From IMG/VR virus record IMGVR_UViG_3300042475_005534, positions 1 to 64,000 of that record: a DNA stretch of 64,000 nt. One strand, written 5' to 3'. The stretch is from a virus. Both the position numbers and the translations under genes were made by a program. The notes under the pieces were generated by a model. It ran no database searches and was not told the origin of the DNA. It saw only the letters and a program-made list of their open reading frames with translations. Within the stretch, counting starts at the first letter, position 1; each line of letters starts with the position of its first letter. Shown piece by piece: positions 10,154 through 60,458 of this stretch.

Positions 10154-11583
10154 TGCGGGTGGATCGATCCCCTCGGGTCGATAACTTCGCCCGAATGGAC
10201 AGCGTGACCAGGCCGGCTCGGGCAACAAAAGCCGGAAGTTACCGCAGTAGCGCCCGTGGCGGGGGGCAGGGGCAAACAGGGGGGACGGTCTATCCGACCA
10301 TCCTTGAGGCGTACAACCGGGACAGTGATTACAAGAGGTGGCGCGCTGGCTGGGACTACTGGCAGGGCTCCGGCAAAAGCTGGGCCGACCTTGAGAGATA
10401 CTTCCTGGTCAGGAGCCTCAGGGATTATGGAGCGCTCCCGGGTCCGCAGCTGACGACTGTCACCTACTTCCCTAGCGGATCCTCCCCGGATGCATCCTGG
10501 ACGGTCGTCAATCGAAACCGAGGAGCCCTCATCCTCCCGCAACTGCTCAGGGCGGAGAACATGGTTCTCGACACGTCCCGCCCAGAAGCCGATCGCCACC
10601 GACTGATTCTTGATGTCAGCTCGACCCTGACCAGCACGCAAATCATGGAATGGTCTGCGTTTATCGGAGATCAATTTGAGGATTCGGCTGTTGGGACGGA
10701 GTCGCCCCAGGGATTGATTGCAGAGCCGATCGATACCATTGCTTACACGCTGGTAGATATCAATCCCGACCAGGGGCAACTGTTCTTTGATTTATCCCGC
10801 CCGTTCATGCGCAGGCGGCCCAACCCCAGGAAGGACAGAGCATTTTGGCAGCGCGTGAACTACGACCGCAGACTGCCACTCTCCTGGAGAAATAACGGAT
10901 CCCGCTATCTCTGCAGCAGTCATCGTTTCTTCTGCTCCTGCCCTGACTACAGCGGAAGTCGAATTGCTGACTTCAGTGGAGACAGCAGCGCCAGCCAGGC
11001 ATTGTTCCCCAGGCCCAGCGCTGGCCGATCTCTCGAGGGCCGATGGGAGTCGCAGGCTGTTGGCTACAGCAGCCGGTTTCGGACGCTCTCTGATCGCTCG
11101 GACCAACGAAGGGAGTGCAAGCATATTCATGCTGTGCGCTGGTCTGTTGGCTATCCGTTCTACGAGCCCAGCGACTATCAGATCAGCGGCAATGAAGACC
11201 GTGGTTTCCAGGGGATCTCTAGCGGGGAGGGACTAGAGAGCAGTGAGGTCCTCCGCTACCACAGACGGAGAGAGCAGACCCTGGACCGACTGGGGAATGC
11301 CCTGGCTGAATCCAGTCGCATCTCGATCGATGCGCGCAACACAATCCCCGCCGACGAAGAAGTCCCGACGGGTGACAGGTCTCCAGTCCTTTGGTCAACC
11401 GATACGGAGCCAGCGGCACTGAGATGCCGGAAGGACGATTGGTGGCTCCCAAGAGGGACCAATACCTTGAAGGTCTTCGATCCATCGACCGAGCGCTTTG
11501 TTGAACTGGTCACGGTCGGCTCCTCTAGGAAGCCGTTCCTCGAAGAGATCCCTGCCAAAGGATTGATCCCGCGGGAGCCCTGA
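10153..11583 (+). CDS. SWIM zinc-finger-like protein
   Basis: FFCSCPD...RECKHIHAV (CxC...CxH) with a long insert. Confidence 0.6.
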   Translation: MRVDRSPRVDNFARMDSVTRPARATKAGSYRSSARGGGQGQTGGTVYPTILEAYNRDSDYKRWRAGWDYWQGSGKSWADLERYFLVRSLRDYGALPGPQLTTVTYFPSGSSPDASWTVVNRNRGALILPQLLRAENMVLDTSRPEADRHRLILDVSSTLTSTQIMEWSAFIGDQFEDSAVGTESPQGLIAEPIDTIAYTLVDINPDQGQLFFDLSRPFMRRRPNPRKDRAFWQRVNYDRRLPLSWRNNGSRYLCSSHRFFCSCPDYSGSRIADFSGDSSASQALFPRPSAGRSLEGRWESQAVGYSSRFRTLSDRSDQRRECKHIHAVRWSVGYPFYEPSDYQISGNEDRGFQGISSGEGLESSEVLRYHRRREQTLDRLGNALAESSRISIDARNTIPADEEVPTGDRSPVLWSTDTEPAALRCRKDDWWLPRGTNTLKVFDPSTERFVELVTVGSSRKPFLEEIPAKGLIPREP

Positions 11584-32330: not shown

Positions 32331-34016
32331 TCACACTCTTGCGAGTACAACCTTCTCCGGCTGGTGCTGATACTTGCCATCGCGGTCCTCGTAGGTGACA
32401 TCACAGGGATCCCCCTCGAAAAACAGGAGTTGACAGATCCCTTCATTGGCGTAGATGCGGCAGTCAGCCCCTGAGGAGTTGCTGAACTCCAGGGTGAGGT
32501 GGCCTTCCCAGCCGGCCTCGGCGGGAGTTGTGTTGAGAATGATACCGCAGTTCTTGACAAAGACTCCCGCAGACAGGGCAAAGTTTCCTGTCCTGGGAGC
32601 GGCGAGGCAGTAGGTTGGATGAAGACCAGGAACGCGGCGCACATTGCAAATCTTATGGTTTGCAGCCAGCGTTCCTGCCCGGAAGCCTTCGATGATGCTG
32701 TGGAACCGGCGAAAAGCGGAGCGATCTACGCTCAGCATCCTGGCAGCTCCACGAATGGAACCCGTAGCCAGTAGTGCGTTCGTCAGACTTTCAGAAGTGA
32801 CATCTTTTCGGCGGCGAAGCGCTCCCGCGCCAGCGTGTGCCACGGCCGACTGTTTGGCCCTGGCGTCTGGCTGAAGCCAGCGCTTCTTTCTTGCCTTAGC
32901 AAGGTTTTGACGGCTCTCTTCCGAGTCGAGATAAGGACGTCGTCCCTCTAGGGCCTTGCGCTTGCTCTCGTCACAGTGCAAGGCATTCAAGATTTTTTTC
33001 CGGTGTTGCGAATCCAACGCAAACTTCTCCGCGCTTTTCCGGCCACCATGCAAATGCCTGAGATCTTCCTGGTTGTGAAGTCGCGTGTGCTGCGCTTGCG
33101 TCAACAATGCAAGGTTGTCCGGGTGATTGTTTGTCTTAATTCCGTCTCGATGATGGACGTGCAGATCTTCGCAGTCAAGGATATCCCTGGCGACCATCCG
33201 GTGAACCGATGTGCGTGCACCTCGCCTGTCACTTCCTTTGGAGGCCAGCGCCGAAGCGTGAACCGGATCGTAAACGCCGGGATAGCCGTGGTCCTCCCAG
33301 TCGTAGAAAGCGTGCAGGGAATCCCCAGGCTGGAGGTGCTGGGCCTCTTTCTCAGTACCGTCTCGAAGCAGGAATCCGTGGTCAGGCGTGCAATGAATCA
33401 ATTCTCCGTTGTCCAGTTCAACTTCAAGAAGTTGGCTTTCCTCGATAAGACGCGGCGCAACCAATTCCTGAGCGATGATTCGACCGTCCAGGACTCCGAA
33501 GCCGTACAACCTTTCTCCAGCCTTTGCTTTGTCGATCAATTCCAGAAAGGTGAAATCTCCGTCAACAAGGCGAACCTTGGTGTCACCACTGAAGCAACGC
33601 GCATAAGTGCTCTTGCCCAGGCAGATGACCGTGACATTGGCTGGGACCTTGAGCTTTTCCAGGGCGACCCCGAGTCCGTAGGAGTGGGCCGGGAGAATGA
33701 AGTAGGCCCCATCACTGTCTGAGTGCAGGGCAGCAGGCTCCAGGTTGTCGGGGTTGAACCGCTTGGGGTCCATCACCGTGCCGGGTATATGGCGGAAGAT
33801 CAGGAACTCCTTGGGCGAGAGACGCAGGTCATAGCCGTAGGAGCTGCAGCCGTAGGACAGGGCCGGGACGGTGTCGATCTCCCAGACGACCTTGTCCAGT
33901 ATGGGATCAAAGGAGTAGGGATGCCTCAGCTCAATGCGGCGTACCAGCTCCGGAGTGAACGGTTCGATCATCCCAGCAGAGGCCTGCTGCTTAATCCAGC
34001 GGTCGTTCTTCAGCAT
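32331..34016 (-). CDS. dcd: dCTP deaminase with intein (561-aa precursor, 212 aa spliced)
   Basis: [21 protein letters not shown]|[36 protein letters not shown]. Confidence 0.92.
32550..33596 (-). mobile_element. Intein (349 aa) with HNH endonuclease
   Basis: Begins CFSGDTKV, block [11 protein letters not shown], ends [13 protein letters not shown] followed by +1 Cys; internal [16 protein letters not shown]. Confidence 0.92.
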
Positions 34017-52156: not shown

Positions 52157-53245
52157 TCAGGCATGGACCAGTTCGCGGGCGACTTCATTGGCCCGCTTGA
52201 TGACACCAGCGCCGGTGCCGAAGAGGGCCGAGTGGATGCGGCGCTTGCCGGCGCCTTGGGTCTTGCCGGAGGATTCGACTTCGGTGACGGCATTGAGGCC
52301 CCAGTAGAGGGTGCCTGCAACGCCCGGGATGTCACGGCCGAGGCCGTAATTCCAGGCGTGCTCGAGCTTGGCCCACTTGCGGGGCATGTCTTCGATGGAG
52401 CCAGGGCGGGTGTCGCCGTTGTCCATGCGGACAGATGGGATTTGCTTTTCGTAGACCTGCTCAAGGAAGTGCCGGTAGAGATCGGTGGTCATGGGCACCT
52501 CCCGCATGGCGCGGTACTCATCGACGACCTGGGCAAAGCTCTGGCGAGCAATGTCGATACTGGAGAGGATGCGATCGATTTGGGCCACATCGTTCTCGGT
52601 GTGCTTGATGGTGAACTGCCGGCCGTGGCGGTTAGCGTCGTTCATGGCGTAGCCGAGGGTGTTCAAACAGACGACCCTGGTGTCAGTGAAGATCCCTCCG
52701 AAGGCAGTGCTGCCGTCGTGGCCGAGGTAGCCGACGATGTTGCGGTAGACCTTGTCACCAGGGATGACCTGCTGGTCAGTGCCGCGGATCTTGGCAGTGA
52801 AGGCCACCTTGGCACCCTCGCGCAGGACGATCACAGCATCCATGTCGCATTCTTCCCGTAGGGCAGAAGCGAAATCCAGCAGGCGCTGGTTGGGGATGAT
52901 CTTGTAATCGGGGCTGGCGGTGCCGAGGATCTTGCGGGTGTCGGGACGCCAGATGGCAACACGGCTGTCCGCCATGCTGATCAGGTGCTGATACGCGGCC
53001 TGGTGGATGGCTTCTCCACGCTCTTGCGGGGTAGAGAAGGGCTGGTCAGCCGCCAGGGCAATGGCATCGAGGAGCTCAGGATTGCTGAGGTCGCCGGCCC
53101 AGAGCTGGAGCTTCTCCACAGGGAAGAGAGCTCCGTAGCGACGGAAGGCGTCAGGGGCGGGCATGGTGCCTTCGATGACGTCGCCTTCGGGGTGCCAGGC
53201 GGCAGTGCCGTGCATGAAGACTGCAGAAGTGACTTCGTGTGCCAT
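52157..53245 (-). CDS. DUF932-family protein
   Basis: MAHE...AWH, YKIIPNQ, HDGS, TRVVCLNTL, GTLYWGLNAVTE. Confidence 0.85.
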   Translation of the reverse strand: MAHEVTSAVFMHGTAAWHPEGDVIEGTMPAPDAFRRYGALFPVEKLQLWAGDLSNPELLDAIALAADQPFSTPQERGEAIHQAAYQHLISMADSRVAIWRPDTRKILGTASPDYKIIPNQRLLDFASALREECDMDAVIVLREGAKVAFTAKIRGTDQQVIPGDKVYRNIVGYLGHDGSTAFGGIFTDTRVVCLNTLGYAMNDANRHGRQFTIKHTENDVAQIDRILSSIDIARQSFAQVVDEYRAMREVPMTTDLYRHFLEQVYEKQIPSVRMDNGDTRPGSIEDMPRKWAKLEHAWNYGLGRDIPGVAGTLYWGLNAVTEVESSGKTQGAGKRRIHSALFGTGAGVIKRANEVARELVHA

Positions 53246-56636: not shown

Positions 56637-56818
56637 TGCGATACGCAGGGGAGGAGACTGAGCTGGCGCAGTTGATCGAGGACGCCATGCGGCGCGATTT
56701 AGAGCTGGCCATTCTTCAGCACTCCCTGCTGGAGGGATTCCGCCGGAAGTTCGCAACTGAAGACCTGGCGGGCCTCCAGCTGCCTGGATGGGATGCACTA
56801 ATGCATGACATGGGGTAA
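56636..56818 (+). CDS. Hypothetical protein
   Basis: TGATG coupling, 60 aa. Confidence 0.45.
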   Translation: MRYAGEETELAQLIEDAMRRDLELAILQHSLLEGFRRKFATEDLAGLQLPGWDALMHDMG

Positions 56819-56845
56819 GTTGTCGGGCATTGCGCAACACACGTC

Positions 56846-57244
56846 ATGCAGTGCGAATGCGGTGGTGAGACAAAGGTGGCTCACACCTACAAGGGGGAAG
56901 ACGGGATACGAGTGAGAGCTAGGAAGTGCGACTGTTGCAGTCAAATGCTGTGGACGTCTCAACAGCCAGAGGAGGTGATCCCAGCTGAGCTGAGGCAGTG
57001 GACAGATGGGAAGCCATGCCGTGCGGCGGAGCCGAGACAGAAGGGGTCTCGCATGCCACCGACGATCGAGGAGTGGGAGGCCAATCCAGAGATGGCCTAT
57101 GGCCTCAAGGCTGACGAGTTGAGGACGCTGGCAAGGCTCAAGGGTTTAACTGGAGCATGGATGTTCAACAAGACTGAGTTGCTGGAGTTCCTGATGGAAG
57201 GAGCCTGGCAGACGGGCCTAGCGAGTGAGAACCACGCGCAATAG
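56846..57244 (+). CDS. NrdR-like zinc ribbon plus Rho-N-like helical domain
   Basis: MQCECGGETKV..T......VRARKCDCC and LKADELRTLARLKGL......KTELL. Confidence 0.55.
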   Translation: MQCECGGETKVAHTYKGEDGIRVRARKCDCCSQMLWTSQQPEEVIPAELRQWTDGKPCRAAEPRQKGSRMPPTIEEWEANPEMAYGLKADELRTLARLKGLTGAWMFNKTELLEFLMEGAWQTGLASENHAQ

Positions 57245-57395
57245 GGCCCTCCAAGGAAGAAGTCCTTGGCATCGTTAGCTGCTGCAACCCCGAGGTAGAG
57301 GAATAGGGCCGCAGAAATGGAGAGCCGGAGGCTTTTACCGAGCTTAGGTCGATGGAGAGAAGTCATGGGGTTGAGAAAGAAGTGAAGTGTGTTGG

Positions 57396-57827
57396 TCAGG
57401 AGGGCGGAAGACAGATCACACGAAAGCCGATGTAGTCGTCGGTATAGCCGGGCAGGTCAATGCCGCGGTGAGCCAAGCGGCGGTCTGAGGGGAGACTGTC
57501 CCAGCCGCCGCCGCGCAATACCGCCCGGCATGGTGCTTCTTCCTGGGGGAGGCACACCACGCGAAACCCGATGACGTCGTTGGCATAGCCGGGCTGGTCG
57601 CGGTAGCGGTAGACCGAGCGGCAGTTCCTGGGGAAGTTGAACCAGGAGCCACCGCGCATTGACAAGTCGCAGCGTGCGGTGGAGGCCCCTGGAGGGACGC
57701 ACACCACGCGGAAACCGATGTTGTCGATTGGCTCGCCGGGTTCTCCGGGAAAGCGATGGGCAGAGCGGCAATGCCTAAGGAAGAAGTCCCAGGGACCGCC
57801 GCGTAACGCCCGATTGGGGATCGTCAT
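57396..57827 (-). CDS. Protein made of three FGE/CLec C-terminal (DGR variable-region-like) modules
   Basis: MTIPNR...; 3 x RGG.W...CRS..R...GFRV(V/I)C; ATGA-coupled to the upstream ORF. Confidence 0.8.
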   Translation of the reverse strand: MTIPNRALRGGPWDFFLRHCRSAHRFPGEPGEPIDNIGFRVVCVPPGASTARCDLSMRGGSWFNFPRNCRSVYRYRDQPGYANDVIGFRVVCLPQEEAPCRAVLRGGGWDSLPSDRRLAHRGIDLPGYTDDYIGFRVICLPPS

Positions 57828-58276
57828 GGTGTCATCCCCCGCGGAAGACAGATCACACGAAAGCCGAGGTCGTAGTCGGCATAGTCGGGCGAATGGGAAA
57901 TGCCGCGACAGGTCGAGCGGCACCAGGGGTAGCTGAGCTGGGCGTGGGAGCCGCCGCGCATGGTTACCTGCGTGGGCTTGACCCCCAGAGGGAGGCACAC
58001 CACGCGGAAGCCCAAGCCGCTGCTGGCATAGCCGGGCTGGAAGCGTCCGAAGCCGCGGCAGGCCGAGCGGCAGAACCCGGGGTTGTTGCCCCAGGAGCCA
58101 CCGCGCAGTGGCGGTAGCATCCGAGGTGGTGCCACCTCCCGAGGGAGGCACACCACGCGGAAACCGACGAGATCGTCTTGGTAGTGCGGAGCGGCGCGTC
58201 GGTAGGACAAGCGTAAATACGCCTGTTGTTCCGTCCTGAAAAACCAAGTACCGCCGCGTTGCACTTGATACGTCAT
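57824..58276 (-). CDS. Protein made of three FGE/CLec C-terminal (DGR variable-region-like) modules
   Basis: 3 x RGG...GFRV(V/I)CLP. Confidence 0.8.
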   Translation of the reverse strand: MTYQVQRGGTWFFRTEQQAYLRLSYRRAAPHYQDDLVGFRVVCLPREVAPPRMLPPLRGGSWGNNPGFCRSACRGFGRFQPGYASSGLGFRVVCLPLGVKPTQVTMRGGSHAQLSYPWCRSTCRGISHSPDYADYDLGFRVICLPRGMTP

Positions 58277-58677
58277 GACCTGCTCAGCAGGAGGAGCAGG
58301 TCAGAGCGGCGAGCTCGGGAGACCTTGTTGCCGCGGTGCCCCCGCTCGCGAGCCAGGGCACGCAGCTGGGACACATTGAGGCTGAGGTCGATTCCATTGA
58401 GAGCGCAGCGGAAGGCTGTTAGCTCCGGGTCTTCTGTAATGGGCACAGAGAGAGTCATAGGAGGGATGGATTGGGGTTCAGGGGGAGTGAGGCCGAGGAG
58501 GTGGAGATGGAGGGCTGCTAGCTGCTGGCTGCGCTCTTCCAGGGCAAGACGCAGCTGGCCGCCGGCGGCGTAGGAGGCGTCGGCAAGATGCCAGAGCAGG
58601 GCAATAGCAATGCAGAAAAAAGGGGCGGCTTGATGCATGAAATGTCGAAGCCGGCCCCCAATCAGATCGGAATGCAT
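58273..58677 (-). CDS. Hypothetical protein with C-terminal Rho-N-like motif
   Basis: From MHSDLIGG; LNVSQLRALARERG.......RRSDLL. Confidence 0.5.
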   Translation of the reverse strand: MHSDLIGGRLRHFMHQAAPFFCIAIALLWHLADASYAAGGQLRLALEERSQQLAALHLHLLGLTPPEPQSIPPMTLSVPITEDPELTAFRCALNGIDLSLNVSQLRALARERGHRGNKVSRARRSDLLLLLSRS

Positions 58678-58687
58678 GGGCAGGGAA

Positions 58688-59407
58688 TCAATAGGGCCTG
58701 TATTCGTTGCGGCACCACTCGAAGACCTGGCCGTGCATGTCGTAGAGGCCCCAGGCATTGGGTTGGTACTGCTTGACATCGCAGGTGGAATCTGCGTTGA
58801 AGCGTGCCTGGGACTCATCGAGGGTGTCACCGAAAGCGAATTCAGTGGTGGTGCCTGCGCGGCAGGCGTATTCCCACTGTTCTTCTGTGGGGAGGGTGTA
58901 GGTCTTACCTGTAGCCCGGCTGAGGCGGGCACAGAATTCCATGGCGTCATACCAGGAGACGCATTCGACGGGGCGGTCATCGCCCTTGAAGCGTGAGGGA
59001 TCGGGATTGAGATCGCGCTCGACCTTGGGCAGGTTCTCGGCGACCCATCGCCACTGGGCTTGAGTGGTCGGAGTTTCCGCCATCTCAAAGCCCTCGTCGA
59101 TGATCACCTCATGGACCGGCTTCTCATCAGAGAAAGCGGACGGTGAATCAGATCCCATCATGAAGCGCCCTGGAGCGATGGAAACCATCGGCAGGTTGAG
59201 GGCGGAAGCGGAGATGCTGTGATTGGAGGTAGTCATGGTTCCTGAAGAAATGGAAGATGGATGGAGGAGGCGGCAGGGGCGAATCCCGATGATGGGGAGG
59301 GCGCAGGCCTTGTTGACGCTGCCCCGGAGGGTGGCACGGCAGTTGCGTGGTTCGTCACTGATCCAGGAGCCACCGCGCAGCTGCCGATGGGCGTCAAGGG
59401 CTGTCAT
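58688..59407 (-). CDS. FGE-sulfatase (SUMF1/CLec-fold) domain protein, C-terminally truncated or circularly permuted
   Basis: MVSIAPGRFMMGS, EKPVHEV, PVECVSWYDA, LPTEEQWEYACRAG, PNAWGLYDMHGQVFEWC, then stop. One RGGSW module lies N-terminal; alternative start at 59236. Confidence 0.88.
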   Translation of the reverse strand: MTALDAHRQLRGGSWISDEPRNCRATLRGSVNKACALPIIGIRPCRLLHPSSISSGTMTTSNHSISASALNLPMVSIAPGRFMMGSDSPSAFSDEKPVHEVIIDEGFEMAETPTTQAQWRWVAENLPKVERDLNPDPSRFKGDDRPVECVSWYDAMEFCARLSRATGKTYTLPTEEQWEYACRAGTTTEFAFGDTLDESQARFNADSTCDVKQYQPNAWGLYDMHGQVFEWCRNEYRPY

Positions 59408-59766
59408 GGCGCCACCTCCCGAGAGAGGCGGACCACACGAAAGCCGAGGCCGTAGCCGCGGTAGCTACCGACGGGCGGGTCGTCTTCGCGGAAGGCCGAG
59501 CGGCAATAGCTGGGAGCTTCGTCCCAGCCGCCGCCGCGCAGCACCGCCCGGCATGGTGCCACTTCCCGAGGGAGGCGCACCACGCGAAACCCGACGTCGG
59601 TAAGGTTTCCCTCTTCGCCTAAGACGGCCTCACTTAGCTCTGCCTCGTGGCGGCCAGCCGAACGGCAGGTATAGGAGGCTTCGCCATAGGAACCACCGCG
59701 AATGGAGTTTCCCAGGGAAAGCGGTAAATCAAGAGACAGTAGAAAAGGGGACAAGCGATAACCCAT
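59404..59766 (-). CDS. Protein made of two FGE/CLec C-terminal modules
   Basis: 2 x RGG...CRSA.R...GFRVVRL. Confidence 0.78.
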   Translation of the reverse strand: MGYRLSPFLLSLDLPLSLGNSIRGGSYGEASYTCRSAGRHEAELSEAVLGEEGNLTDVGFRVVRLPREVAPCRAVLRGGGWDEAPSYCRSAFREDDPPVGSYRGYGLGFRVVRLSREVAP

Positions 59767-59798: not shown

Positions 59799-60458
59799 TC
59801 AGGAAGGGGTCACAACAGGCGCCTCTCGGATGAGCCGCAACAGGGATTCCCGCTGCCGGCGAGTTTCGGCGGCCCTGGCGGCGGCCCCGGCGGCGTCCCT
59901 GGCGGCGTCCCAGGCGGCCCAGGCGGCCCCGGCGGCGTCCCTGGCGGCGTCCCAGGCGGCCCAGGCGGCCCTGGCGGCGTCCCTGGCGGCGTCCCAGGCG
60001 GCCCAGGCGGCCCTGGCGGCGGCCCCGGCGGCGGCCCAGGCGTTTTTCTCCCAGACGTTGCCAGAAGCCAGTAAATCCATGCCATCAATAACTGGGTCAA
60101 TAACGGCCTGGATTTCGAGCCGCTGAGGAGGGAGATTCCTTAGGGTTTCACCGAGGAAGGCCCAATGGATCAAGGAGAGGTCTTTACCGTCCGTAGCCAC
60201 AGCGTCGGGGAAGTCGTAGAAGAATTGCTTAGCTTCCTCGAGCGGAAGAGATTCAAAGATGTGTTCCGCGATGCGAAGAATGGACTCAGTGAGCCCAAAT
60301 CGCTCCACAGCAGGAGTGGAGTCGTTTGAATGGGTCAGGCACCCGATGAAGCAGCCTTTGCCGTCTGACCAGTAATTACCCTGGACGACGGAATCCGCCG
60401 TGATGTGTTCGTGGACCTCCTGTTTGAGGAGGTCGGTGTTCTTGGTGAGGGTGGTCAT
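59799..60458 (-). CDS. Phage protein with AAWAAWDAARD tandem repeats
   Basis: KGCFIGC N-terminal domain; GC-rich tandem repeat at ~59868-60041. Confidence 0.75.
   Translation of the reverse strand: MTTLTKNTDLLKQEVHEHITADSVVQGNYWSDGKGCFIGCLTHSNDSTPAVERFGLTESILRIAEHIFESLPLEEAKQFFYDFPDAVATDGKDLSLIHWAFLGETLRNLPPQRLEIQAVIDPVIDGMDLLASGNVWEKNAWAAAGAAARAAWAAWDAARDAARAAWAAWDAARDAAGAAWAAWDAARDAAGAAARAAETRRQRESLLRLIREAPVVTPS

Follow-up and report, generated by a model that had tools for sequence, protein, structure and literature searches.

In known DGRs the variable repeat (VR) forms the end of a lectin-fold domain, and a neighbouring reverse transcriptase (RT) keeps it variable; in the phage described here the same segment is free-standing and repeated in tandem. 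Templates use AAC more than any other codon, and 15 residues can arise from it, according to Wu et al. 2018 (PMC5758913), who also describe one target with three tandem FGE-sulfatase domains. Some targets have tandem whole CLec domains according to Dore et al. 2024 (PMC10907252), and Kaur et al. 2020 (PMC7159879) present FGE-type domains as the DGR-diversified parts of cyanobacterial conflict systems. Multi-domain and multi-gene targets (PMC5758913, PMC10907252) are like our locus in having several diversifiable units side by side; they repeat whole domains or genes, each matched to a template served by an RT, whereas here only a terminal segment of about 47 aa is repeated and there is no RT. 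We found no published description of RT-less arrays of terminal modules in the literature searched, supplementary files lying outside that search.

Conserved framework blocks alternate with variable blocks in antigenic-variation cassette arrays such as pilS and vls, and the mosaic and chimeric copies seen among relatives of our array would be a likeness to these systems. Unlike such cassettes, all copies of the array lie in ORFs coupled by ATGA overlaps, and no single expression site varies. FGE-type DGR target VRs (Treponema TvpA and cyanobacterial targets) use the same segment of the fold (Pfam ~207-255) with the framework RGGSW..CR.A.R..P..GFR. The variable columns of the array coincide with the AAC columns of the template repeat of an Accumulibacter DGR (contig L005) and of T, an Asn-rich module of a related phage, and show an excess of C-ending codons there. 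The array differs from FGE-type DGR targets in lying in a complete genome without RT, Avd or template, in having its modules detached from the fold core as nine copies in small ORFs, and in combining diverged synonymous framework sites and indels with main array contigs that do not vary in four metagenomic runs.

The DNA analysed, hereafter the window, covers positions 1 to 64,000 of a virus record 88,123 bp long. This record carries direct terminal repeats of 127 bp and has a GC content of 57.6%; CheckV puts the completeness of the 88-kb genome at 100%. PHROG matches to a primase/helicase, a dCTP deaminase and an endolysin confirm that it is a phage. The primase/helicase is closest to Synechococcus phage S-LBS1 and cyanophage S-2L, at only ~29% identity, which is too distant to fix the host. 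We also observed that a 561-aa ORF on the minus strand (32331-34016) matches the dCTP deaminase family end to end and HNH endonucleases at residues ~250-440, which suggests that it may carry an inserted homing-endonuclease-type element.

The array belongs to an operon on the minus strand (59766-57396), a run of translationally coupled genes with ATGA start/stop overlaps at the junctions A/B, E/C and C/D, whose downstream part is the stretch under study. In total the operon holds nine modules of ~47 aa each with linker, and among them a C-terminally truncated FGE core. The module consensus, RGGSW..CRSA.R..P..GFRVVCLP, matches positions ~207-255 of Pfam FGE-sulfatase, the terminal segment of the FGE-type C-type-lectin fold. 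ORF A (59404-59766, minus strand, 120 aa) contains M1 (59581-59700) and M2 (59434-59538), matches Pfam FGE-sulfatase at 214-255 (E 4.8e-5), and overlaps the start of ORF B with its stop (ATGA); the related contig L001 has a different two-module ORF in its place. ORF B (58688-59407, minus strand, 239 aa) consists of M3 (59276-59377), a linker and the FGE-sulfatase core (Pfam 5-194 of 255), and ends in EWCRNEYRPY followed by a stop, the usual C-terminal module being missing. ORF E (58273-58638, minus strand, 121 aa) has a hydrophobic N-terminus and no family match, and its stop overlaps the ORF C start (ATGA). ORF C (57824-58276, minus strand, 150 aa, Pfam E 7.3e-11) contains M4 (58154-58258), M5 (58001-58105) and M6 (57854-57958), and its stop overlaps the start of ORF D (57396-57830, minus strand, 144 aa, Pfam E 5.7e-13), which contains M7 (57705-57803), M8 (57558-57656) and M9 (57417-57515). 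An 87-aa gene-caller version of ORF D is present on 22 contigs. The interval singled out by the initial annotation (57405-58258) contains M4-M9, and the two units that it compared are M8 and M5.

All four module-bearing ORFs score above the curated PF03781 cut-off of 23.3 bits (ORF B 142.5, ORF D 49.5, ORF C 42.6 and ORF A 23.6). No single polypeptide spans PF03781 in the usual order, however, as the core covers 5-194 and then stops, and the modules stand before the core or in separate ORFs. A PDB sequence search with ORF D gave 0 matches, and its ESM Atlas model was set aside as poor (pTM 0.25), its structural neighbours being meaningless. Close relatives of ORFs C and D were neither found by distant blastn in the phage collection nor confirmed by IMG/VR scans.

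Two further features of the region deserve mention. The gene just upstream of the operon (59799-60458) contains 21/42-nt tandem repeats (59868-59993) encoding AAWAAWDAARDAA-type units; L001 has a different version of the repeat in this gene, and two lake runs have a contig that skips 122 nt (59873 to 59996). Directly after GFRVVC stands a hairpin, CCTCC-N3-4-GGAGG (58128-58160, also after other modules and in L001 and L002), which codes for the recurrent linker LP(R/G/P)EV. A hairpin has been reported downstream of some DGR variable repeats, and the one seen here resembles it. We treat it as a lead only, with z scores for DNA folding of only +0.3 to -1.7 and a perfect stem after 10 of 34 modules where 4.3 are expected.

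The observation that the window holds neither an RT nor a template was borne out and extends to the whole complete genome (G000). RVT_1 and Avd (PF05635) each gave 0 matches in it at E<=10, and tblastn with the DGR RT from metagenome locus L017 returned nothing at the same threshold. No module is AAC-rich enough to be the template, as the initial annotation had also stated, the maximum being three Asn in any module of this genome. The AAC-densest windows of G000 and of the viral record G003 were considered as templates and rejected as unrelated sequence that is not module-like. RVT_1 is likewise absent from G001-G007, seven viral records that are related or similar to this one and 21-98% complete, and no RT-bearing relative that might be an ancestor or donor was found among the relatives examined. 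An exact IMG/VR scan with the M5/M8 framework found nothing, and one protein-query scan of genome contigs recovered only the unrelated Accumulibacter DGR. The latter (L005, 8756-14315, on a contig of an Accumulibacter MAG) is a classical DGR locus in which TIR-FGE and STAND-NTPase-FGE targets face a template repeat (10309-10407). After that repeat only a C-terminal remnant of an RT-like frame is left, and the locus served as our positive control.

The suggestion of adenine mutagenesis came from comparing M5 with M8. The four strings said to be shared by these modules are found on the minus strand in both, where they had been placed; a third module shares three of them, and CAGCCCGGCTATGCC is confined to M5 and M8. 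Eight of the nine NNC codon pairs listed for the two modules appear in a codon alignment, and the ninth hinges on where a two-codon gap is placed. At 18 codons M5 and M8 encode different residues; the third base is unchanged in 15 of these, and in 10 both modules have an NNC codon. A 6-nt indel also separates the two modules. The claim that differences fall mainly at codon positions 1 and 2 holds for this pair (11/14/6 at positions 1, 2 and 3), which is the most similar of the 36 module pairs and thus the outlier, but fails over all 36 (681/621/693). Framework columns have a pS of 0.48 and a pN of 0.19 over the 36 pairs, compared with 0.49 and 0.59 at variable (loop) columns. Purifying selection acts on the framework; in the loops evolution is neutral, relaxed or diversifying. 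Given their near-saturated synonymous divergence, the modules are therefore old paralogues, and since they differ at synonymous framework sites and by indels, no single template could serve all of them.

The retained third-position C could likewise be upheld only in part. It exceeds the local background at variable columns, where 127 of 212 codons in our array are NNC compared with 113.6 expected (z 2.0), but largely reflects a regional richness in C3; conserved columns, with 87 NNC codons of 155, lie close to the same background (z 0.2). The C3 share is 0.48-0.53 in neighbouring module-free genes of the minus strand, 0.51-0.60 in the three-module ORFs C and D, 0.45 in ORF A and 0.21 in the only nearby plus-strand gene. 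Local codon background and, for the test at template-Asn columns described below, within-module comparison columns served as controls. They replaced a genome-wide codon background, which was rejected because it mixes both strands while the minus-strand genes here are C3-rich, and which overstated the C excess.

Degenerate IMG/VR scans for template-type sequence (one of them with NNN.GFRVVCL) returned a single contig, L086, which is record G005 (26.8 kb, 31% complete). It has a homologue of the window gene 52157-53245 and six modules, the first of which, T, contains nine AAC codons and one AAT. There is a large overlap between the Asn columns of T and the Asn columns of the Accumulibacter DGR's true template repeat. 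The modules of G005 form the N-terminal parts of proteins whose remainder has no family match; no FGE core was found near them, nor an RT in the 3.8 kb upstream of T or in the 23 kb downstream. Between T and the other modules of G005 there are differences at 15-25 of 96 non-adenine sites, and a fresh VR/TR pair was not seen anywhere in the phage group. The expectation that mismatches would be confined to template adenines did not hold against T: the modules of our array show 13-33 differences from it among 87-96 non-adenine sites, and gaps are required to align seven of the nine. True VRs of L005, by comparison, differ from their own template almost only at adenines within the repeat. An enrichment of mismatches at the adenines of T (odds ratios 3.2-17.6) was dropped as evidence, because these adenines sit in variable columns, where any module would differ.

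We counted C-ending codons at the ten columns aligned to the Asn codons of T, leaving out the L001 copy of M3, whose residues equal those of our M3, and a frameshifted module of L001. The counts were 59/85 in our array, 47/65 in L001, 45/50 in L002, 19/20 in L003, 17/20 in L006 and 44/50 in G005, with 20/20 in the true VRs of L005. Among degenerate codons of our array, 57/75 at these columns end in C compared with 142/242 elsewhere (p=0.004), and the relatives show the same enrichment (p=7e-11). For four-fold codon families, a test that additionally excludes T itself, the share was 68/83, compared with 380/670 at other module columns (p 3.6e-6) and with 225/429 in FGE cores (p 2.3e-7); for our array alone the effect is modest (20/26 vs 113/200, p 0.035). 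Codon classes that cannot be reached from AAC are depleted at the same columns (13/290 vs 104/956 elsewhere). The pattern first seen in M5 and M8 is clearer in relatives, with differences of 11/8/4 by codon position among modules 2-4 of L002. A weaker enrichment (124/229 vs 555/1373) is also present in 64 ordinary single FGE modules from metagenome loci, a set of 74 from which 10 duplicates were removed and from which L037, a VR/TR pair, was also left out. Since ordinary modules are enriched too, the footprint may be an old, family-wide property of this domain subfamily and not a mark of recent capture. The codon footprint of AAC mutagenesis is thus statistically real for the array in this refined form, but it is old, and weak in this phage.

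The relatives show how the region changes. ORF B has relatives at 97% (L001 and L007), 82% (L002), 78% (L006) and 54% (L003 and L008). Its core has the same truncated end in L001, L002 and L006, so that the end point is shared by all four lineages aligned. With a dN/dS of 0.07-0.19 the core is under strong purifying selection, compared with 0.5-1.1 for the N-terminal module and linker. In L006 two N-terminal modules and the core share one ORF and the downstream array is absent; in L002 and L003 modules follow directly after the core, in another frame. Upstream of the operon the phage shares 92% identity with L001, and in the ORF B protein 97%; L001 nevertheless has another ORF in place of ORF A, and the downstream arrays of the two are mosaics. 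A module like M6 stands last in the L001 array, fused to an end like that of M9, an M5 block is found in the fourth downstream module of L001, and a 5' block like that of M8 in its ORF A counterpart. One module of L001 (11734-11871) carries an internal double frameshift, its middle being the canonical FNFPRNRRSAYR in another frame, and the same version occurs in protein P0005, a second independent record. The residues of M3 are identical in our phage and L001 although the arrays differ. Such differences between the arrays are the product of recombination at conserved framework blocks, not of adenine mutagenesis.

Further afield, a full HMMER search with ORF D matched 1474 cluster representatives at E<=0.001, of which 138 also passed E<=1e-10; in many cases 2-6 stretches were matched. 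P0014 has four modules, a core and five modules; P0018 and P0023 have four or five N-terminal modules and a core without its own C-terminal module; P0034 has a core and six modules. These proteins, from public protein sets, are like our operon in combining an FGE core with two to nine modules that precede or follow it, and P0018 and P0023 also in the missing C-terminal module; unlike it, they are single long polypeptides. Among the 85 loci scanned, tandem modules were confined to this phage group except for L005 and L037, which are true DGR VR/TR pairs, and L064, a doubtful regex pair. Viral fragments L100 (8237-8465) and L101 (156-384) each have a module pair, which ends in two stop codons in L100 and is partly Asn-rich (NRNNN before GFRV) in L101. 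As for ORF E, a reading MHSDL after the FGE core is common to our phage (58638-58700) and L002 (10700-10760); L002 runs from it straight into its first module and ORF E is absent there, so that ORF E looks like an insertion here or a loss from L002.

Lake metagenomes offered a view of the array over time. The stretch is held by 24 lake-water runs, and we compared assembled contigs from four of them, spanning 2020-2024; X1, which may be the source sample, was left out. X2 has a 975-nt contig over 57365-58339 and X7 (2020) a 953-nt contig over 57365-58317, both with 0 other letters, as have two contigs of X20 over 56800-58177. X9 has a 7.7-kb contig over 56800-59283 with 27 other letters, of which the 21 listed all fall at 58420-59241, outside the array. 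Position-specific hypervariability, which the initial annotation had led one to expect of metagenomic data, was thus not seen: the main array contigs equal the window in four of four runs, out of 24 listed, and because contigs drop rare variants this excludes turnover of the dominant sequence, not low-level mutagenesis. The flank in ORF E and ORF B differs at 14 (X7), 25 (X20) and 27 (X9) places. Changes in the lake runs are mainly transitions of all four kinds and not adenine-specific. Lower-depth contigs with module-level joints show that other array versions coexist in these runs. Raised depth at 57544-57667, 58040-58163 and 58660-58907 comes from many foreign contigs and is uninformative on copy number. 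The last of these intervals is the most conserved part of the FGE core, where depth rises several-fold in all four runs with many loose ends; close FGE-core sequences are carried by many other organisms in these lakes.

How, then, should the array be read? Our data give no support to its still being diversified, whether in cis or in trans. The initial annotation had inferred that a DGR elsewhere acts on the array in trans, and trans diversification is unlikely: the complete phage genome has no RT, Avd or template, the modules differ in their framework and by indels, and the main array contigs were unchanged over 2020-2024. In its general form, with the enzyme supplied by the host or a co-infecting phage, we regard this explanation as very improbable. 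It could draw on the trans action on remote targets documented for cellular DGRs in PMC10907252. The GC-rich 3' block kept in each module and the excess of the hairpin over shuffles would also agree with it. Set against these are the letter-identical main array contigs beside differing flanking genes, changes in the lake runs that are not adenine-specific, a framework that one template cannot fit, and scans that recovered no more than the unrelated Accumulibacter DGR. A DGR may also never have been involved, which is possible if rather unlikely. The array would then be an ordinary tandem-repeat family with loops under diversifying selection, its C-ending codons arising from local strand composition and from a preference for certain residues (Tyr, Ser, Gly, Asp, Asn and Phe). 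High C3 in all neighbouring minus-strand genes fits this explanation, as do an excess at variable columns of only z 2.0 on the local background, third-position differences as numerous over the 36 pairs as those at either of the other codon positions, near-saturated synonymous divergence, the weaker enrichment in generic FGE modules and the wide occurrence of tandem-module proteins. What it leaves unexplained is the third base of four-fold codons, which residue choice cannot account for and which differs between columns of the same modules, together with a related phage that has a module with ten Asn codons at positions typical of a template repeat.

An improbable alternative is that a free module completes the ORF B core in trans, or that gene conversion moves modules into an expression site, giving alternative binding surfaces without an RT. 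In four lineages the core is without its C-terminal module and still under strong purifying selection, modules follow it directly in another frame in L002 and L003, and the framework blocks are conserved in DNA sequence as well as being points of recombination, all of which would suit such an arrangement. Yet L006 has N-terminal modules and a core with no downstream array, and in G005, where no FGE core was found nearby, unrelated C-terminal regions follow the modules in the same proteins. Moreover, only M3 is a candidate expression site, and its residues do not differ between our phage and L001 although the two arrays do. We lean, with modest confidence, towards a different reading, namely that the array is a decayed record of old DGR-type repeats that lack an RT; its translated modules would now be shaped by recombination and drift, next to a lectin core that is permuted or truncated. 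The earlier suggestion that the array records DGR products survives in so far as C-ending codons are enriched at the AAC columns of a relative, and is weakened by the small size of that effect in this phage and by its presence in ordinary modules.

Under this preferred reading of the array as old DGR-type repeats, the modules would descend from DGR-diversified repeats, inherited from an ancestor with a DGR or captured from a host, and C-ending codons would have been left at former AAC positions. Present change proceeds by duplication, by unequal recombination at framework blocks, which yields the shuffled and chimeric modules, and by indels, with selection purifying on the framework and relaxed or diversifying at loop positions. 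To judge from position and homology, the products might be small repeat proteins that show variable loop surfaces for binding, and they may be made together with an FGE core bearing a module at its N-terminus, within a block of replication-type genes; we hold both suggestions with low certainty. A more speculative and decidedly improbable idea is that lake phages which carry VR-type and, in one case, TR-type modules but no RT of their own exploit the DGR world of their hosts, their modules being occasionally re-diversified in trans by a host DGR enzyme or serving as decoys against DGR-diversified C-type-lectin anti-phage sensors of the host.

To conclude, we present free-standing terminal modules of the FGE-type lectin fold in at least seven viral records in which no RT was found, one of them complete, beside a truncated and strongly conserved lectin core. 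If these modules are former DGR products, a hypervariable repeat can persist, multiply and be shuffled after loss of the retroelement. This short segment would then be usable without its core, or together with a core that carries the segment at its other end. Either outcome bears on how much variation the lectin fold tolerates.
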